From: Halorutilales archaeon Cl-col2-1
GTDB taxonomy: Archaea; Halobacteriota; Halobacteria; Halobacteriales; Afararchaeaceae
Direction of reading: 5' to 3'
Length of the DNA stretch: 64,000 nucleotides
Assembly: GCA_041891055.1 (NCBI GenBank)
Contig: CP169074.1
Location: forward strand, 896,001-960,000
Shown here: positions 1,965-45,844 of the stretch, piece after piece
How the letters are laid out: every line of letters begins with the position of its first letter
How positions within the stretch are numbered: position 1 is the stretch's first letter
Notes under the pieces: generated by a model
The model's input: only the letters and a program-made list of their open reading frames with translations
Databases searched by the model: none
What the model was told of the DNA's origin: nothing
Program-made: the position numbers and the translations under genes

Positions 1965-2660
1965 CTACTCTTGCTCTTGGTGTGCCTCGCGCACCTCGGC
2001 GAGTGCATCACGTACCTCCTGCCACGAGGGCCCCGATGTCGTCGTCATAGTCCATGCCCTCTCGACGTAGCCTTCGGGATTCGCGAGTACTATGAGTCCG
2101 AGATGGGTGAAATGGTACTCAGTTCCTACTGCGGACTCCTTTCTGAACTGTATGCCGTACTTCTCGGCGACCACTTCCTTCGCCCTGTCCTCCGACTCAG
2201 GCCTAAGGTAATGCCAGTTTCCGGCGTCGAGATTTACGTTCATCCGGTCGGAGTACTCACGTAGCCTGTCGGCTGTGTCACGCGCGGGATCGAAGGTTAT
2301 AGGGAGAAAGACAACTTCGTCGGTGTAATCGTTCTTGATCGAGTCTGCCTGTACGTTGCTGAGTGTCGATATGAGACGTGGACAGACCGTGTTACAGTTC
2401 GAGTAGAAGAAGGTCATAAGGACATTGTTGTCGACCTGAGTCGTCGTGTACTCGTCGCCGGTTATGGGGTCGGTAAGAGTCGCCTCAGGCAGCTTCTGTC
2501 CGTAGGCTGGATATGACAGAGCCTCGCTCTTCGCCCTCTGACTCTCGCGTTTGTCGAGATACGTCTGACCGCCCGACGATCCCCCCATCACACTAGTACA
2601 GCCTGCGGTCGAGGCTACCGCTGTTGTCCCGAGAAGCTTGAGAAGGTTACGCCTCTTCAT
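1965..2660 (-). CDS. SCO1/SenC copper chaperone lipoprotein
   Basis: MKRRNLL...TAGC signal; CNTVCP (CxxxC) motif, ITFDPARD and conserved His; start moved to ATG at 2660. Confidence 0.9.
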   Translation of the reverse strand: MKRRNLLKLLGTTAVASTAGCTSVMGGSSGGQTYLDKRESQRAKSEALSYPAYGQKLPEATLTDPITGDEYTTTQVDNNVLMTFFYSNCNTVCPRLISTLSNVQADSIKNDYTDEVVFLPITFDPARDTADRLREYSDRMNVNLDAGNWHYLRPESEDRAKEVVAEKYGIQFRKESAVGTEYHFTHLGLIVLANPEGYVERAWTMTTTSGPSWQEVRDALAEVREAHQEQE

Positions 2661-2718
2661 TACTGGGGGATAGTGGAAAGGCGAGTATAACTCGTTTGGT
2701 ATGTGACTAGAAACCGGT

Positions 2719-3933
2719 CTAAGTGAAGCTGTCGAGCCCCTCGTCGTGTGTCTCTGCGTTCTCCTCACGTGGTGACTCGTTACCGTCGACAGTCACTGTG
2801 CTGTTCCAGTTGACGCTTCCCTCGACGCCGTCGTTCCAGCCTTCCTTGACATAGACCGACGTGAGACTTATCTCGTCGCCCGGGCGGAGTTGGATGTCGG
2901 CTTTTTCGCCCCAGAGAGCGACGCGCATCTCTCCAGACGGGTCGCTCACACGTATGTTTCTGACACTGCCCTCGCTGCCGTCGTCCCTTGTGAAGGTTCT
3001 CGTCTCCTCGACGTCTGTGACGACGCCGTCTATGTCGTAGGTCTCATCTATCTCGACGTCTTCTATGGGTGTCGAGTCGGGGACGAACTCGACCTCGTCG
3101 TCTGTCTTGTCTACAGTACCCCTGTCACCGACGTGGAGTTCGAGGTCGCCGTCATCGATCCTCGTGTAGCCGCCCTTGACTCTCACGACGTCGCCCTCGG
3201 TCAGCCGTTTGACGTCGTCGGCTCTTCCGTCCCAGAGAGTGAGACGTATCCAGTCGGTGTCGTCTCCTACGACGAGGTTCGAGACACGTCCCTCTTCTCC
3301 CTCATCGCGGTCGAAGGTTCTGACATCAGAGGTCTCTATCACCTCGGCGACTATCTCGACCTCCGACATGCCCTCAGTCAGATCTCCGACAGACGTCGCA
3401 GTGTCGATAACGTCGACGTCGGTCTCGTCGTCGGGTTCGACCTCTGTCGCGCTGACCTCGACACCGCCTCGGTATCCCTCCCTCGGCGAGCCGCCTATCT
3501 TGAGTACGTCTCCGACAGAGAGCTCGTCTATCGAGTCGGCGTACTCGTCCCAGAGTGCGACACGTACACGTCCGGTCTCGTCTCCGACCTCTATGTTGGC
3601 GACCTTTCCGTCGTCTCCGTCGTCCCTCTCGAAGCTACGTACATCGCCTATGTCGACGACCTTCGCGGTGAACTTGACCTCACTCATCTCGGTGGTTATG
3701 TCGTCGACCGAGTCGGTTATGCTGTCGTTCATCTCGTGGGCGACTAACTTCGCCGCGGTCGGAACGTCACAGAGCCCCCCCATCTGTTCGACCTTCTTCT
3801 CGACGAAGCCCTCGAACTCGTCCCTCGAAACGTCGGCGTCGACGTCAAGGTTCGAGTAAGTCTCCTCGACCGCCTCCAGTTCGTCGTCCGAAAAAGAGTG
3901 TCCCTCAGTGTCGTCAGTCGAACCCGAAGCCAT
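2719..3933 (-). CDS. rpa: Single-stranded DNA-binding replication protein A (three OB folds)
   Basis: Three repeats of the type DVRTFERDDG..G.V.N..VGD.TG.VRV.LW. Confidence 0.9.
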   Translation of the reverse strand: MASGSTDDTEGHSFSDDELEAVEETYSNLDVDADVSRDEFEGFVEKKVEQMGGLCDVPTAAKLVAHEMNDSITDSVDDITTEMSEVKFTAKVVDIGDVRSFERDDGDDGKVANIEVGDETGRVRVALWDEYADSIDELSVGDVLKIGGSPREGYRGGVEVSATEVEPDDETDVDVIDTATSVGDLTEGMSEVEIVAEVIETSDVRTFDRDEGEEGRVSNLVVGDDTDWIRLTLWDGRADDVKRLTEGDVVRVKGGYTRIDDGDLELHVGDRGTVDKTDDEVEFVPDSTPIEDVEIDETYDIDGVVTDVEETRTFTRDDGSEGSVRNIRVSDPSGEMRVALWGEKADIQLRPGDEISLTSVYVKEGWNDGVEGSVNWNSTVTVDGNESPREENAETHDEGLDSFT

Positions 3934-26927: not shown

Positions 26928-28424
26928 ATGGCGACCGAAGACGGGGGTAGAGAAAGCGATGCGGACGTTGTGGTTGTGGGTGGTGGCATAGGCGGTCTCT
27001 CGGCGTCGGCTTTCCTGTCGAAGAAGGGATACAGGGTCGAGTTGGTCGAGAAAAACGCCTCTGTCGGCGGCAGAGCGTCTGTCTTCGAGGAGGACGGCTT
27101 TAGGTTCGACATGGGACCGTCGTGGTACCTGATGCCCGACATCTTCGACAGGTTCTTCGCGAAGTTCGGACGTGAGACGGAGGAGTACTACTCCCTCAAC
27201 AGGCTTGACCCCAACTACCGAATATTCTTCAAGGACGGTGACCGGGTCGACGTTCCAGCGAGTCCCGACAAGGCAGCGAGACTCTTCGAGAGCTACGAGG
27301 ACGGAGCCGGAGAGGCGTTCAGGAAATACCTTGAGAAGTCAGAGGAGACCTATGAGATAGGAATGAACGAGTTCGTCCTAGAGGACAGAAACAGGATACG
27401 TGACTACCTCTCTCTCGACGTCCTTCGGAACGCACGGGGTATCAGTCTTCTCAAGAAGATGCAGGATCACGTCGAGGAGTACTTCGAGAACCCGAAGCTA
27501 CAGCAGATCACCCAGTACACGCTCGTCTTCCTCGGCGGAGCACCTTACAACACTCCGGCTCTCTACAGCCTCATGAGCCACGTCGACTTCAACATGGGTG
27601 TCTACTACCCCGAGGGAGGCATCTACTCGGTGATGGAGGCTCTGAGAGAGCTCGCCGAGGAAGAGGGAGTCGAGTTTTCGTTGGGAGAGGAGGTAACCAC
27701 GATAGACCGTTCAGACGGCCAGGTCGTAGTCGAGACCAAGAACCGAAGTATAGACTGTGACGCCGTCGTCTCGAACGCCGACTACGCCCACACTGAGACA
27801 CAGCTTCTACCCGACGAGTACACGACCCACGACTCCGACTACTGGGACTCAAGGACTTACGCGCCGTCGGCTTTCCTCGTCTACCTCGGAGTCGATAAGG
27901 AGCTACCCGAACTCGAACACCACTCTCTCGTGCTTCCCGAGAACTGGAACCCGCATTTCGAGTCGATATTCGACAGTCCGTCTCTTCCCGACGATCCTGC
28001 CTACTATATCTGTAACCCGACACGTACCGACGACACCGTCGCTCCCGAGGGCAAGTCGGCGATATTCGTCCTCGTCCCGATAGCCGCCGAACTCAGCCTG
28101 ACAGACGACGAGAGACAGGAGTTCCGTGACGCGGTCATAGACGACATAGAGGAGAACACCGGCGTCGAACTCAGAGACAGGATAGAGTACGAGAGGATCT
28201 TCGCGGGCAGGGAGTTCCAGAGTAGGTACAACAGCTACAACGGTACCGCCCTCGGAATAGCCCACACTCTGAGGCAGACGTCTGTTCTGAGACCCAAACA
28301 GAGATCGAAGAAGATGGAGGGTCTCTACTACGTCGGTCAGTACACCAACCCGGGTATAGGGATGCCGATGTGTCTCATAAGCGGAGAACACGTAGCCGAG
28401 AAGGTCGAGAACGACATCGGGTGA
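26928..28424 (+). CDS. crtD: Phytoene desaturase family (carotenoid 3,4-desaturase)
   Basis: VVGGGIGGL, FDMGPSWYLMPD, PGIGMPMCLISG; first gene of crtD-lye-cruF. Confidence 0.9.
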   Translation: MATEDGGRESDADVVVVGGGIGGLSASAFLSKKGYRVELVEKNASVGGRASVFEEDGFRFDMGPSWYLMPDIFDRFFAKFGRETEEYYSLNRLDPNYRIFFKDGDRVDVPASPDKAARLFESYEDGAGEAFRKYLEKSEETYEIGMNEFVLEDRNRIRDYLSLDVLRNARGISLLKKMQDHVEEYFENPKLQQITQYTLVFLGGAPYNTPALYSLMSHVDFNMGVYYPEGGIYSVMEALRELAEEEGVEFSLGEEVTTIDRSDGQVVVETKNRSIDCDAVVSNADYAHTETQLLPDEYTTHDSDYWDSRTYAPSAFLVYLGVDKELPELEHHSLVLPENWNPHFESIFDSPSLPDDPAYYICNPTRTDDTVAPEGKSAIFVLVPIAAELSLTDDERQEFRDAVIDDIEENTGVELRDRIEYERIFAGREFQSRYNSYNGTALGIAHTLRQTSVLRPKQRSKKMEGLYYVGQYTNPGIGMPMCLISGEHVAEKVENDIG

Positions 28425-28429
28425 CCCGA

Positions 28430-29278
28430 ATGGGAATGGAATCCGGGAACGTATTCGACGGTCTCAGGTACCTTCTCAGGCTGTCACGTCCTCGTTTCTG
28501 GCTCTATCTCGCGGGTCCCGCGGTTCTCGGTGCCGTCTTAGGTGCAAACTCGGTAGACGACCTCCTCAGTCCGACGCCGGCTTTCCTCGTCCTTTACTTC
28601 CTGATACCCGCGAACGTGATGCTCTACGGTGTCAACGACTACTTCGACAGGGAGATAGACGAGGAGAACCCGAAGAAAGAAGCCAAGGAGTCGGTATACA
28701 GACGGTCGAGATGGGTCGACACAGTCGTAGGTGTGTCACTCCTGATTATGGTAGGTCTCACGGTGGCTCTCGGATCTCCCTCTATGGCAGCCTTCGTCTT
28801 CCTGAGCGTGGGTTACAGCGCACCGCCTCTGAGGTTCAAGACGAAGCCTTTCCTCGACTCGTTGTCGAACGGTCTCTACATACTCCCGTTCGTCGTGAGC
28901 CACGTCGCCGTGTCGGGGGAGTATCCCCCTGCTCTGACCGTCGCCGGGGGATGGCTCTGGACTATGGCTATGCATACCTTCTCGGCGATACCCGACATAC
29001 AGCCCGACAGACGTGCGGGTATACGGACGACTGCGACGTTTCTCGGGAGACGCCGAACCTACGTCTACTGTACGGCTGTCTGGCTTCTGTCGGCTGTAAC
29101 CGTCGGCGTCTGGAACTCGCGTCTCGGAGGAGTGATCCTCGTCTACCCCGTCCTGTCGGCTCTCTTCTACGTCTCGAACCTCACCGACTCGGAGGCATAC
29201 TGGTACTATCCTTACATAAACAGCCTCGTGGGAATGGTTTTAACCCTCGCTGGTCTACTCCGACTACCCGATGTATAG
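28430..29278 (+). CDS. lyeJ: Lycopene elongase (UbiA-family prenyltransferase)
   Basis: SRPRFWLYLAGP, YGVNDYFD, AIPDIQPDR. Confidence 0.9.
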   Translation: MGMESGNVFDGLRYLLRLSRPRFWLYLAGPAVLGAVLGANSVDDLLSPTPAFLVLYFLIPANVMLYGVNDYFDREIDEENPKKEAKESVYRRSRWVDTVVGVSLLIMVGLTVALGSPSMAAFVFLSVGYSAPPLRFKTKPFLDSLSNGLYILPFVVSHVAVSGEYPPALTVAGGWLWTMAMHTFSAIPDIQPDRRAGIRTTATFLGRRRTYVYCTAVWLLSAVTVGVWNSRLGGVILVYPVLSALFYVSNLTDSEAYWYYPYINSLVGMVLTLAGLLRLPDV

Positions 29279-30071
29279 GCTCGAAGAGGTAGTCTCGGAG
29301 AACAGGTTCGTCATCTCGGTCGTGTTTCCCGTGATGGGAGCCTTAGCCTTCGTGGGATCGGCTGAGGGACTTCTTCCCGAAGTACTCCGGTTCAATCCCT
29401 TGGTGATACTTCTCGGGACTCTCGTGATGAGGCTTCCCCTCGTCTCGGGTTTAGAGCCCCTCGTCGACAGGAAGGCAGTAGGTGGTCTCGGGGCACTCAC
29501 GGTATATACCTACGCCATAGAGTTCGTGGGTCTAAGAACCGGGTTCCCGTACGGAAGCTTCGAGTACGTCGTGAGTCTGGGTCCCGTATTAGGAGGGCTC
29601 CCCGTGGCTCTGCCAGTCTTCTTCATACCTCTCGTCTTGAACGCGTATCTGGTCAGTCTCCTCTTAGGTCTGAGGCGCCGCGCCAGACTCGTAGCCACGG
29701 TAGCCCTCGTCGTCGCCATCGACGGAGTCCTTGACCCCGCGGCTGTCTCACTCGGTGTCTGGAAGTACTCCGAGGGCGTATTCTACGGTGTTCCTCTATC
29801 GAACTACGCCGGATGGCTCCTGAGCGGCTCGGTCGCGGCTCTTCTGATAGAGACGTCTCTCGACACAGACGGCGTACGTCGGAGGCTCTCAGAGACCGAC
29901 TTCATGCTAGACGACTTCGTTAGCTTCCAGATACTCTGGGGATCTGTCAACGTCTACTACTCGAACTGGATACCCGTAGCTCTCGTAGGAATCAATCTCG
30001 TAATACTCCACAGAGTCGGATTCGACTTCGCGTTCCTGAGAGAGACGTCTCTCAGAGATTACTGTCTCTGA
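29271..30071 (+). CDS. cruF: Bisanhydrobacterioruberin hydratase
   Basis: TGFPYGSFEY, LDPAAV, GVPLSNYAGW. Confidence 0.9.
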   Translation: MYRLEEVVSENRFVISVVFPVMGALAFVGSAEGLLPEVLRFNPLVILLGTLVMRLPLVSGLEPLVDRKAVGGLGALTVYTYAIEFVGLRTGFPYGSFEYVVSLGPVLGGLPVALPVFFIPLVLNAYLVSLLLGLRRRARLVATVALVVAIDGVLDPAAVSLGVWKYSEGVFYGVPLSNYAGWLLSGSVAALLIETSLDTDGVRRRLSETDFMLDDFVSFQILWGSVNVYYSNWIPVALVGINLVILHRVGFDFAFLRETSLRDYCL

Positions 30072-30238: not shown

Positions 30239-30910
30239 ATGGAGCTAGAGAGATTCGTCGAGTCGAACTCGACAACTGAGACCGAGGATGAGTTCGAGCT
30301 TGAGAACAAGAGAACACTCGACATAGAAGTAGACGGGAGTGTGATGACGAAAGCCGGAGCTATGGTCGCATACGAAGGTGACCTGTCGTTCACGGGGAAG
30401 TCGTCAGCCGAGGGAGGAATAACGGGTTTCCTGAAGGAGGCAGCCACGGGTGAGGGGACGCCGGTGATGAAGGTCGAGGGACAGGGTCACGTCTACGTCG
30501 CAGACCAGGGAAAGAAGATACAGATACTGTCTCTCGACACTGACGAGGCAATCTCAGTAAACGGAAACGACGTCCTCGCGTTCGAGGACTCGGTCGAGTA
30601 CGAGATAGGAACTATCGGAAGTGTAGGCGGCGCGTCGGCGGCGGGTCTCACGAACGTCTACCTCTCGGGACCGGGAACCGTAGCCATAACTACACACGGC
30701 GAGCCTCTGGTTCTGACGCCGCCGGTGAACACCGACCCCGACGCGACCGTTGCATGGAGCGATAACCTGTCCCCGAGCATAGACACCGACAGGAGCCTGA
30801 GCGACGCGGTCGGACAGTCGTCGGGTGAGACCTACCAGATGGCTTTCGAGGGAGACTCGGGCTTCGTCGTCGTTCAGCCCTTCGAGGAGACACCACACAG
30901 GACTCAGTAG
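30239..30910 (+). CDS. AIM24 family protein
   Basis: KAGAMVAYEGD, TGEG, VDPDA-like TDPDATVAW, GFVVVQP. Confidence 0.88.
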   Translation: MELERFVESNSTTETEDEFELENKRTLDIEVDGSVMTKAGAMVAYEGDLSFTGKSSAEGGITGFLKEAATGEGTPVMKVEGQGHVYVADQGKKIQILSLDTDEAISVNGNDVLAFEDSVEYEIGTIGSVGGASAAGLTNVYLSGPGTVAITTHGEPLVLTPPVNTDPDATVAWSDNLSPSIDTDRSLSDAVGQSSGETYQMAFEGDSGFVVVQPFEETPHRTQ

Positions 30911-30922
30911 ACAGTAGACCGG

Positions 30923-30937
30923 CGAAAAGTTTATTAT
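30923..30937 (+). promoter_or_regulatory. BRE/TATA promoter candidate for the downstream RNA
   Basis: CGAAAAG-TTTATTAT about 25 nt upstream of the structured region. Confidence 0.6.
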
Positions 30938-30959
30938 CTTCCATTATGTATAGTATTCC

Positions 30960-31357
30960 GCTTCGAGGGAGCACACTGGACGGCCCTCTGTGACCGTCTC
31001 CTAGACTTCGAGTCGGGAGTCAGTCGCACGGTCTAAGGGTCGAAAACCGAACCGTCCGTAGAAGGGCGACGAGGAGATAAGATCCTATGGAGAAGCGCAG
31101 AATCCCTGCAGACGTAAAAAGGTGAAAGTCCTTAAGGGAGGGCGAAACTCCCTCCTACGTGTGCGGTTCCGCCGGGGACGAGAACACAAGTCCGTTAAGA
31201 TCGGTCTATGTGTTCTCCCTCCGGAGGGACACGTTAAGACCAAGTAATGGACGACGCGCGAAGCGGCGTTCGTGAAACCGGCGAAAGCCGGATATGGTCG
31301 TAGAGGGATTCGGAAAACGGCTCCAGTCCGGGTTCAAGCCTCGTAGTGTCGGTTCGT
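30960..31357 (+). ncRNA. Unassigned ~400-nt highly structured non-coding RNA candidate
   Basis: 14-bp long-range helix 30984-30997/31294-31307 with three G-U pairs; GAAA tetraloop and T-loop-like hairpins; no credible ORF; upstream TATA. Confidence 0.75.
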
Positions 31358-31543
31358 ATTTACAGGTAATACAGCAGAATGCCCCCGTCTTTAGGCGTAT
31401 GCAAATCGCTACGTGATTTGCTTGCTCAGAGATCTCCGATTTCTGAACGGGGGATGAATGCGTCAACTCCTTAGCCTACCGCGCTACGTAGACCACTTGG
31501 ATATTCATTGTTTTTATATGCTCTACAACCAAATACAATTGTA

Positions 31544-32593
31544 ATGGTCACGACGACGGTGACGGTAAAGTTCCACCAACCCACCCGCGAACGTAGACGT
31601 GAATGGCAGAGAGCCATGCGCCTCTACCGCGACACTAAGCAGTACGTTATAGACGGGTGGGAGGACGACGACTTCGGTATGTCCGTCACTACGTCGGAGA
31701 TAGACAACGAACTCTACGCCGCCATACAGAACCAAGCGATACGTGAGGCTAAGAGTGACTACAAACGCGACGGCATCGTGGAGTACCACCAAAGCCAACC
31801 TTTCGCCGTCAACAACCAGAATTGGGAGGTTGACACTACCGACAACGGCAACGTCGTCCTCGGATTCCCCTGTATAACCGGATGGTGGTACACTCCCGTA
31901 GAAGTCTACGACGAGGTAGATGAAGCCGTACAGAAGCTCGTGGACGGTGAAGGTAACAAGTCACGCCTCCAAGTCTACCGTCGTGGTTCTGAGTGGTACG
32001 CCACATTCAACGTCGAACACGAGCAAGACGTGGGTGGCGAAACGCCTGTCGGCGTAGATATAGGACACAACCACGTCCTCGCTGTCCGTGTACCTGACGA
32101 GGACGAATCCATGCTCGTATCAGGTAAGGAAGCGAAGTACGTCCGGCGTAAGTATCGTTCCCTACGTGATTCGCTACAACAAGCGGGTGCGCTTCGCGCA
32201 CGTAACCGCGTGGGTAACAAAGAACAACGCCGGATTAAGGACATGAACCACAAACTCTCCCGTCAACTCGTAGAGTTTGCTTCCGAGTTCGAAAACGCCG
32301 TGATACGTATGGAGGACTTAGAAGGTATACGTGACGGTAACGGTTGGGATGGCGTCCACTCATGGCACTTCTACCAGATACAGGAGTTCATCACGTATAA
32401 AGCAGAGAAAGAAGGTATTGAGGTGGAGAAGGTAGATCCCCACAACACGAGTCAGATGTGTTCAGAGTGTGGTGAGGATGAAGACACGGTGCGTGACGGC
32501 GACCACTTCACGTGTCACGAGTGCGGATACGAACGCCATGCAGACCTGAACGCGGCGAACAATATAGCGAGACTGGAGGGAGAACCTTGTTAA
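31544..32593 (+). CDS. tnpB: RNA-guided endonuclease TnpB (compact, about 349 aa)
   Basis: GVDIG / MEDL / ADLNA; CSECG...CHECG; TTTTTATAT about 25 bp upstream of ATG 31544. Confidence 0.93.
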
Positions 32594-32640
32594 GCAAATC
32601 GGAGATTTGCGTACCGTCGGAAATCTTCCGATTTCCGAGA

Positions 32641-32941
32641 CTCGGCGTAACAGTCCGGCTGACGAACCGAGTGCCACGCGGGATTAGACAACCCGCCGGT
32701 CTTAGACTGCCTACCGTGAGTAGGGTGGAAGGCGGCTTTGACACCGCTACGTGTGCTGTAAAGGAGCGTCGGAGTGATAACGACGCCCGACCTATGAAGG
32801 AGTCACTCGAAAGCGTACCCGAACTCCGAGGAAAGGCACAACCTTAATATCCCCTTCGGTGATTCCCGCGTTCGTGAATCGAAGATTCACGAGCCATCCG
32901 AGCTTCGCTCGGAGACGTCTTTAGGCGCGGGAGGATGTCAA
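32641..32941 (+). ncRNA. Putative omega-RNA of element 2
   Basis: Structured non-coding interval between tnpB and right end; shares motifs with 45960-46228. Confidence 0.7.
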
Positions 32942-33774
32942 TTCTCATGTATCCAAAGGTCACCGTAGAAGTCGTCCTGTTCGAGACTGACCTCGCCTCG
33001 TGAAGACAGGAAGAGTAGACTGAGGTAGGTATTGACGACACGTGAACGTGACACGGCTTCGGCAACTAGCTCACGGAAGAGAACCTCGTCACGTCTCTCG
33101 AACTCAGTGGCGAGGCGTTCGGAGACTCTCTCTATCTCATCCTCTATGTCGTCCTCGTGTGCAGTCTCTACGGCGTCGTCGGTCGTTGTCTCGGGCTCAT
33201 GTGGTCGTGAGCTAGGTACAGGAGTCGAGTACGCCTCGGGTGAGGAGGATGTATCGTACTCCCGTCTCTGTTTCCAGACGCGTTTCCTCTCCCTGTCCCT
33301 CAGCTCCCGTACTAGCTCGTCGAGTGTCTCGGGATGTGCGTTCCGTCTCGTAGTCTTACGTTCGAGGCGTCTCTCCATCTCGGCTTCGAGGCTGTCAACA
33401 GGGTCGTACTCCGCGCCCGAGCCGGTGGTATCGGCGTGTTCTTCGGTTCTGGGGCTGTGGAAGAGTGCCTCGGGTTCGTCTTCGTCCCGGTCGTCGTCCT
33501 CGTCGTCACCGTCGTCGACGACGTAGTCACTCTTCATGCGCAGGAGTATACTCGCATAGAGGAGAGCCTTTCCCGTGCGTATGAGGTCGTTCGAGTCTAT
33601 CCTTTCGAGGAACTTGTCGGTGACACGTGGTATGTCGATGTCCCACGGGTCTATCTCGCCCTCCTCGGCGAGTCTCACGAGGACGTCGACGGGCTCGTCT
33701 ATCGCATCTTGTGACGTCCCGGCGTCTCCTTCGCCGTCGGTCTCAGTCGGCTTCTGCGGCTGTTTCCTCTTCAT
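32938..33774 (-). CDS. scpA: Segregation/condensation protein A (kleisin)
   Basis: GEIDPWDIDI, ASILLRMKS, YLSLLFL, QDDFYGDLW; follows smc. Confidence 0.93.
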   Translation of the reverse strand: MKRKQPQKPTETDGEGDAGTSQDAIDEPVDVLVRLAEEGEIDPWDIDIPRVTDKFLERIDSNDLIRTGKALLYASILLRMKSDYVVDDGDDEDDDRDEDEPEALFHSPRTEEHADTTGSGAEYDPVDSLEAEMERRLERKTTRRNAHPETLDELVRELRDRERKRVWKQRREYDTSSSPEAYSTPVPSSRPHEPETTTDDAVETAHEDDIEDEIERVSERLATEFERRDEVLFRELVAEAVSRSRVVNTYLSLLFLSSRGEVSLEQDDFYGDLWIHEN

Positions 33775-36700
33775 TCTGACTGTCGTCGTTGAGACGGACT
33801 CCCGTGACTCTTGATACGTTGTCTCCCTCCATCGTGACCCCAACTGTGCGCTCCGCCTTCTCCACCATCTGTGTCCGGAGGCTCACGACTATGAACTGTG
33901 TGTCGTCGGAGATGTCATCTATCATCTCAGCTACCCTGTCGGCGTTGGGCGCGTCAAGGAACATGTCGACCTCGTCAAAGGCGTAGAACGGAGCCGGAGT
34001 GTAACGCTGTATGGCGAATATGAACGAGAGAGCTGTGAGTGATCTCTCGCCCCCACTCATCGACTCCAGACGTTTGACGGGCTTGTCAGAGGGTTTCGCC
34101 TCTATTGTCATGCCTCCCTCAAAGGGGTCGTCGGGCTCCTCTAAGACGAGTTCCCCCGAGCCGTCGGAGAGACGTCTGAAAACTTCCTCGAACTCGGAGT
34201 TTATCTCGTCGAAAGCCTCGCGGAACTTGTCGTGTTTGAGATCCTCGTACCTGTCTATCCTGTCAAGTATCTCGTCCCTCTCGTCCTCGAGTGTCTCCTT
34301 CCGGCTCGTGAGATCGTCTTTCCTCTCACGTACCTCGTCGTACTCGTCTATCGCGAGCATGTTGACGGGCTCCAGATCCTCCATCTGGGACTCGATTTCG
34401 TCTATTGACGACCGTATTTCGGAGTAGCCCGGTATCTCGTCGTCTTCGTAGTCACCGGGGTCAACCTCGTCTTCGAGTTCGTCCGCCTCGTCTTCGAGTG
34501 ACGACCTCTCAGTTCTGAGAGCCTCTATCCTCTCGTCCGCCTCGTCGATCTTCCTGCGTATCCCGTCGCGCTCCTCGACTGCTTCCTCAAGTTGGTCTTC
34601 GAGGCTTTCGAGTGTCTGACGTAGCTCACCTATCTCGTCCTCTATCTCGTCTATGCGTTCCTTCTTATCGTCGCGTTCGTCCTCAAGCTCATCTATTTCG
34701 TCCCTCAGGTCACGTATGAGGTCTTCCTTCTCGTCACGGCTCTCGTCAAGACTCTCTATCTTCTCCTCTAACTCGTCTATCCTGTCAGTCCTGTACTCCT
34801 TCTCAAGCTCCAACTCGTTGAGGTCGGCGTCGACGTCACGTAGCCGGTCCTCGATATCGGATATTTCTTCTCTGAGGGCGTCGGCTTTCTCGGAGAGGTC
34901 GGATATCTCCGAGTCGGAGAGTTCGTCTTCGAGTTCTTCTATCTCCGACTCGTGAGACTCGATCTCGTCGTCGAGACCTTCGACCTCTTCGTCTATCTCC
35001 TCCATCCTCTCGCGTTTCTCCGCCTTGGTGTCCTCTAAGCCGTCGAGTCTCTCACGTGCGTCTTCGAGGCTTTCTTCGAGGTCACCACGTCTGTCTTCGA
35101 GGTCTTCGAGACGTCTCTCGTACCTCTCAACACTTGACTCCGACGACGTGATACGGTCTTTGACATCGTCGAGACGTGCCTCGACGGAGGAAATCTCGTC
35201 CCTGAGAGACGCACGTTGTGATTCGAGTTCCTCGATTCTGTCTGCGAGCTTCTCAAGTGTGCCCTTCGACCCGAACGAGTACCGCGACCCCTTCTTAGAT
35301 CCACCCGTCATAGCACCGCTTTTCTCGACTAAGTCGCCGTCGAGTGTCACCATCCGGTAGCTTCCCATCATCTCCCTCGCGGTCTCCATGTCCTTGACGA
35401 CGAGGGTGTCGCCCAGGACGTAAGAGAAGACAGACGAGTAGACGTCGTCGAACTCGACGAGGCTGTAGGCGTAGTCAACGACGCCGTCCTTCGAGAGGGG
35501 CTTCTTCGAGAGCGACCTCGTGTTCATCTCGGAGATGGGGAGGAAGGTCGCACGTCCTGCGTTGCGCCTCTTGAGGTACTCTATCGCTCTCTGACCCACA
35601 CTGTCGTCGTCGACCACGACGTGAGCCATCCTGCCTCCCGCAGCAGTCTCGACGGCTGTGGCGTACTTCTGTGAGACACTCCCGAGGTCAGCGATAGTAC
35701 CGTGGACGCCGTCTATGTCGGAGTTGAGAACAGTACTGACCGCCTTCGAGTAGCTACTTCCGTCGGAGCCCTGACGCGCCTGTTCCTGTGCGAACTCCTC
35801 CTGTTTCGACCTCAGAGACTCCTCGATGTCCTCTAAGTCTCTCCTCAGGTCGTCTCTCTCGTCTTCGAGGTCGTCTTTCACATCCCTGAGTTCTTCGAGG
35901 TTGTGTCTCTCGTTTTCGAGCGACTCCTCTATCTCCCCTATCTCCTCGTCGACCTCCGTGATCTCGTTCTGTGTCTCACGTATCTCCTTCTCAAGATTGT
36001 CCTCCTCACGCGACCTCCTTCGCGCCTCGTCCAAGAGGCGATCCTTCTCTCGCATCAGGTCATTCTTCTCGTCACGTAGATCCTCGACCTCGGTTTTGTG
36101 ATCCTCAAGAGACTCACGCACGTCGGCGTACTCGCCCTCAGCCTCGTCTATACGTTCCTCGACGTCTTCGAGGGCTGACTCCTTCGACGAGAGGTCTGAC
36201 TTGAGACTCGACTTCTCGACCTTCTTCTCACGTATCTCGGATTCGAGGTCTTCAATCTCCTCGTTCGCCTTGTCTATCCCGACGAAAGCCTGTCTCTTCT
36301 CCTTCTCGTACTCGTCGAGGCTCTCCTCAGCGTTCTCTATCCTGTCTCTCTTTCCGGATATCTTCGCCTTGATCTCCTCTATCTCCGACTTGAGTTCGAG
36401 ACGTTCATCCTCGCCCTTTCGGCGTATCTCGTCCTCGACCTCCTTGACCTCGCTCTCAACCTCGTCGACGAGAGACTCGGCGTCTTCGAGGTCGTCCTCT
36501 AACTCCTCCTTCATCTCCTTCTCGTCGGCAATCTCGTCCTCCAACTCTTCAATCTCGTCGTTTATCTGGTGGAGCTTCGCGACCGAGAGGAGACCCTCCT
36601 TCTCCTGCTTCTCCTCCCTGAGTTCACGGTATTCGAGAGCCTTGTCCCTCTCGTCCTTGAGTGAGTCGAGACGTTCGTCTATCTCGTCGAGTATCAGGTC

Positions 36701-37321
36701 GACCCTCTCGACCCTCTCCTCGACGGTGTCGAGTTCGCCGCGCGCTTCTTCCTTCTTCTCGTCGAACTCGGCGGTTCCAGCCGCCTCCTCGACTATGCGC
36801 CGTCTCTCTGTCGACGACATCTGTATTATCTCTGTGACGTCCCCCTGCATCACGACGTTGTATCCCTCTGGGGTGATACCCGCGCTCGCGAGGAGTTCCT
36901 GTATGTCGGAGAGGTTACACGACCTTCCGTTAATGTAGTAGTACGAGTAGTAGTCGTTCTCCGTCTTTTTTATGCGTCTCTTGATCACGACTTCGTCGGG
37001 GTCGCTTACTTCACCCGCCGCTGTACGTATCTCGTCGGGCTGAACTGTACGGTCGGAGTTGTCGAGGACTACCTCAACGCTCGCCTCTCGCGCTGAGTCG
37101 CCCTCGGGAGGATCGTAGAGGAGGTCAGGGAGACGCTCGGCTCTCATGCCTCTCGTACGAGCGAGTCCGAGAGCGAAGAGTATACTGTCGATCAGATTAC
37201 TCTTACCGCTCCCGTTGGGTCCGCTTATAGTAGTGAAGCCCTCGTAGAACGGGACAGTAGTGGGTCTCCCGAATGACTTGAAGCCGTCTATACTTATCTC
37301 TTTTATATGCATCGGCGTCAA
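33743..37321 (-). CDS. smc: Chromosome segregation protein SMC
   Basis: GPNGSGKSN, hinge GRATFLP, MSGGE, FDEVD. Confidence 0.97.
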   Translation of the reverse strand: MTPMHIKEISIDGFKSFGRPTTVPFYEGFTTISGPNGSGKSNLIDSILFALGLARTRGMRAERLPDLLYDPPEGDSAREASVEVVLDNSDRTVQPDEIRTAAGEVSDPDEVVIKRRIKKTENDYYSYYYINGRSCNLSDIQELLASAGITPEGYNVVMQGDVTEIIQMSSTERRRIVEEAAGTAEFDEKKEEARGELDTVEERVERVDLILDEIDERLDSLKDERDKALEYRELREEKQEKEGLLSVAKLHQINDEIEELEDEIADEKEMKEELEDDLEDAESLVDEVESEVKEVEDEIRRKGEDERLELKSEIEEIKAKISGKRDRIENAEESLDEYEKEKRQAFVGIDKANEEIEDLESEIREKKVEKSSLKSDLSSKESALEDVEERIDEAEGEYADVRESLEDHKTEVEDLRDEKNDLMREKDRLLDEARRRSREEDNLEKEIRETQNEITEVDEEIGEIEESLENERHNLEELRDVKDDLEDERDDLRRDLEDIEESLRSKQEEFAQEQARQGSDGSSYSKAVSTVLNSDIDGVHGTIADLGSVSQKYATAVETAAGGRMAHVVVDDDSVGQRAIEYLKRRNAGRATFLPISEMNTRSLSKKPLSKDGVVDYAYSLVEFDDVYSSVFSYVLGDTLVVKDMETAREMMGSYRMVTLDGDLVEKSGAMTGGSKKGSRYSFGSKGTLEKLADRIEELESQRASLRDEISSVEARLDDVKDRITSSESSVERYERRLEDLEDRRGDLEESLEDARERLDGLEDTKAEKRERMEEIDEEVEGLDDEIESHESEIEELEDELSDSEISDLSEKADALREEISDIEDRLRDVDADLNELELEKEYRTDRIDELEEKIESLDESRDEKEDLIRDLRDEIDELEDERDDKKERIDEIEDEIGELRQTLESLEDQLEEAVEERDGIRRKIDEADERIEALRTERSSLEDEADELEDEVDPGDYEDDEIPGYSEIRSSIDEIESQMEDLEPVNMLAIDEYDEVRERKDDLTSRKETLEDERDEILDRIDRYEDLKHDKFREAFDEINSEFEEVFRRLSDGSGELVLEEPDDPFEGGMTIEAKPSDKPVKRLESMSGGERSLTALSFIFAIQRYTPAPFYAFDEVDMFLDAPNADRVAEMIDDISDDTQFIVVSLRTQMVEKAERTVGVTMEGDNVSRVTGVRLNDDSQNEEETAAEAD

Positions 37322-45737: not shown

Positions 45738-45844
45738 GCCCGGGTGGCTTAGCCGGTCATAGCGCCGCACTCATAGGGCATTCGAGTAAGGCGCTCGTCT
45801 CCTGAGACATGCGGAGGCCGAGGGTTCGAAACCCTCCCCGGGCA
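45738..45844 (+). tRNA. tRNA-Met(CAT) elongator with 33-nt intron (45776-45808)
   Basis: GCCCGGG/CCCGGGC acceptor; CCGCA-CT-CAT-A|intron|A-TGCGG; bulge-helix-bulge CTCA/TGAG. Confidence 0.93.

Follow-up and report, generated by a model that had tools for sequence, protein, structure and literature searches.

What does the + strand encode between the AIM24 gene (30239-30910) and the TnpB gene (31508-32593) in a 64,000-nucleotide stretch of the genome of Halorutilales archaeon Cl-col2-1 (contig CP169074.1, positions 896,001 to 960,000, hereafter the window)? The interval flanked by these two genes, 30960-31357, had been described from its letters alone as an unassigned, highly structured RNA gene of about 400 nt with its own promoter, for which comparison with Rfam, a homologue search and a covariation analysis were proposed as checks (the original prediction). 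We report here on this RNA gene, and on three features that the original prediction had missed: a bulge-helix-bulge (BHB) processing motif in the terminal helices, a circular form in a homologue, and a linkage to the gene of HARP, a PIN_5 protein-only RNase P homologue. The whole explanation that we favour, and consider probable, is that of a circle made through the BHB from a stand-alone RNA gene and working with HARP.

A promoter-driven RNA gene absent from Rfam

The open reading frames that overlap the interval are all short (40-94 aa), in line with the earlier view that none is credible. The proposed BRE/TATA element (CGAAAAGTTTATTAT, 30923-30937) persists in the closest homologues, and 22 of the 25 family members listed have a TATA-like element at 44-54 nt upstream of helix P2 (described below). 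Judging from promoter spacing, transcription probably starts near 30958-30962, and the T-run UAUUU (31357-31361) is the likely terminator; T-rich runs follow helix P1 in homologues too. The gene is present in a single copy in the 2.06-Mb genome.

When the whole window was compared with the 4227 covariance models of Rfam 15, three tRNAs were the sole matches at gathering score. At E≤10, the best match over 30800-31600 reached 15.2 bits, for a gathering score of 49, and the Haloferax homologue gave at best 10.2 bits against the same library. Relatives were found across many families, by BLASTN and by covariance models. With BLASTN, partial matches were obtained in 6 of 60 relatives. Two models were built on the most conserved domain (31235-31299): R1, which covers the 3′ domain (alignment A3), matched 41 of the 151 genomes of the order; R2 (35 sequences, 160 positions, alignment A6) matched 43 of them, one being doubtful (G088, 27 bits), as well as 5 of 132 genomes from the other families of the phylum (four low-GC f28 genomes and one f34 genome). 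A pattern scan with one genome per species yielded 31 loci, 29 of them haloarchaeal (16 Haloferax species, Haladaptatus, Haloarculaceae and metagenome-assembled genomes). The alphaproteobacterial pattern matches (L052, L065) and a metagenome contig (L100) were sited in coding region and were discarded as chance. The gene was also found on three Halorussus megaplasmids; phage records gave no match, and viral contigs no pattern match.

The + strand folds at -168.6 kcal/mol (z -3.72, none of 100 shuffles being as good), while the - strand does no better than its shuffles (z -1.55). Three full-length sequences already show compensatory changes in 35 of 111 RNAalifold pairs. In a 41-sequence MAFFT alignment (A4), the RNAalifold consensus comprises 82 pairs in 12 helices, and compensatory changes are found at 66 of them. 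Standard pairs fill 87.6% of the cells of this structure, compared to 72.7% in column shuffles and 33-45% when partners are slid; 66 pairs changed on both sides, compared to 33-44 for the slid versions; and the covariation score is 0.482, compared to 0.09-0.13. None of 500 shuffles matched the structure on any measure. The tested structure was derived from the same alignment A4, which favours it over the slid versions; a chance origin of the pairing is nevertheless implausible, because the gap is large and the pair types are many.

We conclude that window 30923-31361 (+ strand) is a stand-alone, promoter-driven gene of an undescribed family of structured archaeal RNA. The core of the original prediction, a large conserved structured archaeal non-coding RNA gene with its own promoter and no Rfam assignment, is upheld by the Rfam searches, the covariation and the homologues in several families.

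Structure of the RNA

The RNA is closed by a terminal stem (P1, a 4-bp helix and P2), which opens on a four-way junction with arms P3 and P4; further inward, P5 and P6 lead into a conserved domain made of P8, P9 and P10. Near-invariance is seen in unpaired stretches, for example GGAAAACG (31312-31319) and AAGRCCAAGUA. The features of the gene are as follows (paired fractions and compensatory changes refer to the 41-sequence alignment):

30923-30937, + strand: BRE/TATA-like promoter element CGAAAAGTTTATTAT (window sequence), conserved in G011 and G027
30957-30974, + strand: 5′ leader, with the P1 5′ strand (P1b CGAGG, 30964-30968), GAGC (30969-30972) and two bulge nucleotides; predicted to be discarded
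30973-30975, + strand: 5′ bulge ACA, predicted cut 30974/30975; 3-nt bulge in 40 of 41 sequences, third nucleotide A in 40 of 40
30975-31337, + strand: predicted mature circular RNA, 363 nt, from BHB geometry and the circle of the Haloferax homologue
30976-30982, + strand: P2 5′ strand, pairing with 31325-31331; 96.2% paired, compensatory change in 4 of 7 pairs
30983-31034, + strand: P3 arm, a variable hairpin; base of the helix 71% paired, length lineage-dependent
31036-31086, + strand: P4 arm, with conserved internal loops AAAACCGA / ACGAGG and a GUAGAA loop; compensatory change in 12 of 15 pairs
31089-31106, + strand: 5′ strands of P5 (GGAGA, 94.8% paired) and P6 (GAAUCCC, 93.4% paired), and conserved GGAGAANCG
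31107-31229, + strand: lineage-specific insertion (about 105 nt) and variable hairpin P7, absent from 37 shorter members
31235-31299, + strand: most conserved domain, with AAGACCAAGUA, P8 (GACC/GGUC), the P9 hairpin and the P10 hairpin with its GAAA loop
31305-31331, + strand: 3′ strands of P6, P5 and P2, with the invariant GGAAAACG
31332-31338, + strand: BHB 3′ strand GUUC and 3′ bulge AAG, predicted cut 31337/31338
31339-31361, + strand: 3′ trailer, with the P1 3′ strand CCUCG (31339-31343) and the T-run UAUUU

Several helices drawn in the original prediction are supported by covariation: GAGC/GUUC, CUGGA(C)/(G)UCCAG, the GUCGC...GCGAC arm in the P3 region, and the CCGGC-GAAA-GCCGG hairpin, which is P10. 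Others were not confirmed. The 14-bp helix 30984-30997/31294-31307 is complete in the window (14 of 14 pairs), the three closest homologues make 7, 9 and 11 of its 14 pairs, and it competes with the covarying P3, P6 and P8. Similarly, the pseudoknot 31190-97/31245-52 goes from 8 of 8 pairs to 5, 4 and 3 of 8, and the bases of its 3′ arm are those that form the 5′ strand of P9, a covarying helix. As for the tRNA T-arm-like CGGG-UUCAAGC-CUCG, it is not a hairpin, being instead the 3′ half of the BHB motif. Overall, a real and unassigned structured RNA gene had been recognised, and the 14-bp helix, the pseudoknot or switch, and the T-arm are not conserved.

The precursor measures about 265-330 nt in most members. 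The insertion of about 105 nt is shared by the window and three relatives (G011, G027 and G114), with compensatory pairs inside 31107-31229 among 3 long forms, and in genus g15, P10 is extended by an insertion of about 190 nt. Lineage-specific insertions of about 60-200 nt in P7 or P10 were seen at L042 (G004), L037 (G050), L089 (G085) and L078 (G015); some of the large ones are G+C-rich with hairpins of their own, and they caused weak, apparently tandem R1 matches (G015, G085 and others), which turned out to be single RNAs with the P10 insertion of about 190 nt.

Circularisation of the Haloferax homologue at the BHB motif

The termini in the window read CGAGG-GAGC-(ACA)-CUGGAC at the 5′ side and GUCCGG-GUUC-(AAG)-CCUCG at the 3′ side. 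This is a canonical BHB, with a 4-bp helix between 3-nt bulges on opposite strands, and flanking helices of 5 and 6 bp. By strict criteria, namely all 4 bp of the central helix paired, a 3-nt bulge on each side of it and helices on both flanks, the motif is found in 34 of the 41 sequences, and the 4-bp helix is 99.4% paired in the alignment. The window itself provides the cutting rule: its tRNA-Met (CAU) gene (45738-45844) carries a 33-nt intron in a canonical BHB of the same topology as the RNA termini, and from it the rule of a cut after the second nucleotide of each bulge was taken. This tRNA gene was found by the Rfam tRNA model and missed by ARAGORN.

Nucleotides that the rule keeps at the junction are conserved (column 28, A in 40 of 40; column 485, A in 34 of 40; G480, 40 of 40; U481, 39 of 40; C483, 37 of 40), whereas the discarded bulge columns 26, 27 and 486 vary, their commonest base being present in 19, 21 and 24 of 40 sequences. 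Both enzymes of the pathway are encoded in the genome, EndA (PF01974) at G000:C1:1358925-1359680 and RtcB (PF01139) at G000:C1:53973-55268.

A circle was looked for in contigs from four RNA runs, belonging to four studies, mapped on the Haloferax gibbonsii locus L062. A single joint, 5894 to 5614, which goes back 281 nt, was present in all 4 runs. In run X9, the depth was 7227 for a 281-nt contig and 5793 for a 59-nt contig over the junction, compared to 45-413 for the flanking contigs; run X13 gave a 310-nt contig wrapping round the joint, run X2 141-nt contigs across it, and in run X1 the joint rests on one contig, of depth 10.5. The canonical BHB rule predicts for Haloferax a circle of 281 nt at the observed joint, within a 1-nt ambiguity. 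A tandem DNA copy at L062 is argued against by the 29 haloarchaeal loci, which hold a single match each. Using as evidence only those parts of L062 that contigs cover, we conclude that the Haloferax homologue is a 281-nt circle, seen in RNA contigs.

The same geometry predicts circles of 216-363 nt across the family. In the window organism, the RNA gene of the original prediction stands, and its linear product of about 400 nt gives way to a probable circle of 363 nt (30975-31337), which EndA and RtcB presumably produce there too. Because conservation sits inside the circle and at its junction, we infer that the circle is the functional product.

Coupling of the RNA gene to the HARP gene

Where the neighbours of the RNA gene are conserved, it adjoins a PIN_5 gene annotated "RNA ligase partner protein". 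The PIN_5 protein of the window genome matches solved "RNA-free ribonuclease P" chains (E 2e-35) and TIGR03875, and we therefore identify it as HARP. According to the accessible part of an mBio 2025 article, HARP has no established role in archaea that possess RNase P as well, Haloferax and Methanosarcina knock-outs have no phenotype, and the sole earlier clue was co-occurrence with the ligase Rnl3; an RNA partner goes unmentioned in that part.

With at least 207 bits as the mark of a true HARP, 51 of the 151 order-sample genomes have the protein; Rnl3 occurs in 35, each of which also has HARP. RNA and HARP were both present in 33 genomes and both absent from 90, with 10 having the RNA alone and 18 HARP alone; for the 100 high-quality genomes, the corresponding numbers are 24, 61, 2 and 13. 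The Fisher odds ratios, 16.5 for all 151 genomes and 56 for the high-quality ones, are overstated, as the genomes are related. A look inside families is more informative: across the 51 genomes of f6, f7, f15 and f17, RNA and HARP occur in one identical set of 15 genomes. The 10 genomes with RNA and no HARP comprise eight that are 63-89% complete, G039, and the doubtful G088. Outside the order, HARP is present in all 5 genomes with the RNA.

The two genes are less than 1.5 kb apart in 13 of the 33 genomes that have both, in 7 families and 8 genera. They are divergent in seven genomes (G108, G061, G032, G118, G143, G130, G138) and convergent in four (G023, G053, G043, G013); in G103 and G085, the RNA gene lies just downstream of Rnl3 in an Rnl3-HARP pair. 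Adjacency was also observed in 4 named Haladaptatus records, in 3 Halorussus plasmids, and in 2 of 16 metagenome stretches, many of which are shorter than 3 kb.

A relation with Rnl3 emerged as well. In the order sample, the 16 HARP genomes devoid of Rnl3 all carry the RNA, the 18 HARP genomes devoid of the RNA all carry Rnl3, and none of the 51 HARP genomes is without a companion gene: 35 have Rnl3, 33 the RNA and 17 both. For the phylum sample, HARP was found in 50 genomes and Rnl3 in 47; the HARP genomes without Rnl3 are G022 and G170, which have the RNA, and G154, an assembly of about 120 contigs, which has neither. HARP is thus accompanied by Rnl3 or the RNA in 49 of these 50 genomes. PADLOC gave no match for HARP or Rnl3, and we do not claim a defence system here. 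We conclude that the RNA gene is genomically coupled to the HARP gene.

A possible role for the circle, and its rivals

How would the circle be made, and what might it do with HARP? The primary transcript would start about 15 nt before, and end about 20 nt after, the terminal stem that contains the BHB. EndA would cleave between the second and third nucleotides of both 3-nt bulges, and RtcB would ligate the ends into a covalently closed circle that retains the four-way junction (P2, P3, P4, P5) and the conserved 3′ domain (P6-P10). Ligation would form a conserved 7-nt loop, GUYCWAA, capping a 12-bp stack that P2 (7 bp) and P5 (5 bp) are modelled to build on a continuous strand; the invariant GGAAAACG would precede this stack and A-N-C-G would come after it. 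The layout of loop and stack in this model resembles a pre-tRNA acceptor/T-arm minihelix, and the element is a candidate docking or cutting site for HARP. The circle would be an exonuclease-proof RNA bound by HARP oligomers; it could regulate HARP or serve as its pseudo-substrate, or lend it specificity as a cofactor. Our best guess is that the stable circle is a partner of HARP, or regulates it.

A stronger version, which we put forward tentatively and rate as less likely to hold than to fail, is a new RNA-protein system in which HARP is dedicated to the circle, the circle regulating, guiding or being switched by HARP. In archaea that have the RNase P ribonucleoprotein, HARP would have been retained for the circle rather than for bulk tRNA processing; its dodecamers would dock on the ligation-made minihelix, with GGAAAACG as a "leader", and the system would work together with Rnl3 or instead of it.

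Several observations weigh against the circle as partner of HARP. Part of them concern the minihelix: the other arms of the RNA leave from the strand opposite to that of tRNA, the junction loop is no longer T-loop-like in f28, where loops are GCCYAAA, and ARAGORN applied to doubled circles recognised no permuted tRNA in 40 of 41 cases, the G022 match being on the complementary strand. Others concern the circle itself, for which the evidence consists of assembled RNA contigs, not raw reads, without a DNA-run control, and which in the window organism rests on homology. In its accessible part, an H. volcanii circular RNA sequencing study (PMC7714728) has seven BHB circles, none of about 281 nt, which is telling only if the strain carries the gene. 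Finally, 7 of the 41 sequences fail the strict BHB geometry, six being one f9/f14 subgroup and one a misaligned row. In that subgroup (L019, L020, L023, L025, L026 and L060), 1-3 of the 5 pairs of the helix outside the 3′ bulge form in the aligned register, with every pair of the 4-bp helix and of P2 intact; these members have either a relaxed motif or a displaced outer stem.

These seven members, together with the origin of the circle data in a homologue and not in the window organism, are what could be said for a linear RNA in the latter, with a terminal stem that closes the fold and protects the ends, and a BHB-like geometry left unused. We regard this as quite improbable, since the BHB of the window is canonical, the genome has genes for EndA and RtcB, the circle of the homologue closes precisely where predicted, and the junction nucleotides that are kept are conserved while the discarded ones vary. 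The most improbable proposal, to which we give almost no credence, makes the RNA a part of the IS200/IS605-type element that follows, as a guide or omega-like RNA for the adjacent TnpB (31508-32593). The RNA gene indeed lies 3 nt upstream of the TTAC after which the element begins. It is outside the element, as had been foreseen. Moreover, homologues occur in other genomes with no adjoining TnpB, the RNA is single-copy here while the end of the element is repeated in the sister genome, the omega and HEARO models of Rfam are unmatched, and the 3′ end of the element is where TnpB guide RNAs are located.

Two further alternatives bear on HARP. In one, the RNA and HARP genes merely share mobile or variable DNA, and the RNA has an unrelated role, for example as scaffold of another ribonucleoprotein or as a ribozyme; linkage could then stem from joint horizontal transfer instead of joint function. 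Both genes are patchy, and the RNA gene sits on Halorussus megaplasmids, beside a DUF1424 Rep gene in G027 and beside the insertion sequence (IS) in the window. The RNA is missing at the syntenic site of the same-genus G001, one of the 18 HARP genomes without RNA, which has HARP and Rnl3; G039 (99% complete) has the RNA (90 bits) and neither HARP nor a nearby remnant; and in the window genome the RNA gene is 46 kb from HARP (C1:881017-881631) and 143 kb from Rnl3. Hitch-hiking of this kind nevertheless seems unlikely to us, as adjacency is repeated in 8 genera and three arrangements amid otherwise unrelated neighbours, co-occurrence persists with the genes distant or on separate contigs (G000, G022, G146, G092), the RNA is in 16 of the 16 HARP genomes without Rnl3, and viral contigs gave no match. 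In the other alternative, the circle is a substrate that HARP cleaves at the minihelix-like site to give 5′-phosphate and 3′-OH ends, and Rnl3, where present, recloses it, so that linear and circular forms would differ in activity. The trios of Rnl3, HARP and RNA in G043, G013, G103 and G085 would suit such a cycle, as would the conserved single-stranded GGAAAACG on the 5′ side of the 12-bp stack; RNase P-type cleavage ends are established substrates for an ATP-dependent ligase, a point discussed in the accessible part of the mBio 2025 article. Against it, 16 of the 33 genomes with RNA and HARP have no Rnl3. In addition, the X9 junction contig reaches about 80% of the depth of the body and the X13 contig is self-closing, therefore most molecules appear closed; no ends were observed, although contigs cannot reveal them. 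We doubt that cutting and resealing is the explanation, and retain the BHB-made circle acting as partner or regulator of HARP as the probable one.

Comparison with known RNAs

The absence of RNase P and SRP signatures noted earlier was borne out: neither RF00373 nor RF01857 matched the interval, and both RNAs are encoded elsewhere in the genome (RNase P RNA at G000:C1:335485-335916, 171.5 bits; SRP RNA at G000:C1:1729706-1730015, 203.8 bits). A divergent RNase P or SRP RNA, an omega/HEARO RNA and a riboswitch were all excluded by cmscan, at gathering score and at E≤10, and a tRNA or permuted tRNA by the ARAGORN result given above. With archaeal type A RNase P RNA, the RNA shares a structured length of about 300-400 nt, paired precursor termini and a tie to an RNase P-type enzyme; it differs by the lack of any RF00373 match at E≤10 and of CR-I to CR-V. 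A passing likeness of AAGGCCAAGUA to a part of RNase P RNA was unsupported by the covariance-model alignment of the RNase P RNA of the genome, and was dropped.

Compared to known archaeal BHB substrates (tRNA introns, 16S and 23S stems), the RNA matches in motif geometry, in predicted cut positions and, for the Haloferax homologue, in a circle of the predicted size. It differs in that there is no host tRNA, rRNA or mRNA, the gene having its own promoter and a likely terminator; the "exons" are unconserved flanks of about 15-25 nt, and the excised circle is the conserved, structured part. BHB-dependent circularisation does yield functional RNAs other than introns, as in the circularised SRP RNA of Thermoproteus and the permuted tRNA genes; those are permuted known RNAs, whereas here none was recognised in any permutation.

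OLE, GOLLD, ROOL and raiA RNAs are similar in size range, in their many covarying helices and in conserved junction nucleotides; the present RNA differs by being archaeal, circular in a homologue, unmatched in Rfam and linked to a PIN_5 nuclease gene. It resembles a TnpB/IscB omega RNA in being a structured RNA beside a TnpB gene in the window, and departs from it by its position upstream of and outside the IS, its conservation without TnpB elsewhere and the lack of an Rfam match. 6S RNA and ToxI, of the type III toxin-antitoxin systems, are RNA decoys or antidotes of proteins. By analogy, our RNA may be likened to them as an abundant stable RNA whose gene accompanies that of an RNA-binding or RNA-cutting protein. 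Unlike a type III antitoxin, it is a single non-repetitive gene, not co-transcribed with the nuclease gene, from which it is divergent, with which it is convergent, or to which it is unlinked; it does not qualify as one.

No description of the RNA or of a HARP-linked non-coding RNA was found in the literature, supplementary tables (HARP and Rnl3 distribution, circular RNA lists) being outside the scope of the search. Nothing similar is described in the accessible parts of a JBC 2024 review (PMC10941002), of the H. volcanii EndA and circular RNA study (PMC7714728) and of a 2025 survey of archaeal circular RNAs (PMC12558985), and no description of the RNA was found in that of a bioRxiv preprint (10.64898/2026.10.21.760802). 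We rate as new the RNA class and the arrangement of the gene with its partner; the biogenesis pathway is known from archaeal introns and circular pre-rRNAs.

Neighbouring genes

The IS200/IS605-type element occupies 31364-32941, right after TTAC (31360-31363) and 3 nt past the T-run of the RNA gene. Its TnpB gene (31508-32593) encodes a Cas12f1-like TNB domain (88 bits), and its right end (about 32861-32941) is repeated at 82-100% identity on many contigs of G001. In that genome the gap between the AIM24 and ScpA genes is about 40 nt (G001:C43:7764-7803), compared to 30892-32952 in the window, which holds the RNA gene, its promoter and the IS. This is a presence/absence difference of about 2 kb within the genus, and no target duplication was seen.

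At locus L003 of G027, a DUF1424 "putative rep protein" gene (2000-3142, 238 bits) lies just downstream of the RNA gene, which hints at an integrated plasmid or virus alongside it. Upstream of AIM24 in the window, a UbiA-family prenyltransferase gene (28370-29278) overlaps a Caroten_synth gene (29271-30071); the two look like a bacterioruberin-type pair. On the other side, ScpA (32938-33843) is followed by a 1192-aa open reading frame (33743-37321); both are on the minus strand, convergent with the RNA and IS block, and the latter is, at a guess, SMC.

Significance

The RNA is a second candidate partner for HARP beside Rnl3, present in every order-sample HARP genome that lacks Rnl3, and it makes the purpose of HARP in archaea that have RNase P a testable matter. 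It could be added to Rfam as a family with a curated structure, for a better annotation of haloarchaeal genomes. The existence of prokaryotic circular-RNA genes likewise becomes testable. If our explanation is true, stand-alone genes would use the intron machinery, with no host gene, to yield a conserved, abundant and structured circle, and this would be the first dedicated circular-RNA gene family of prokaryotes with a defined protein partner.

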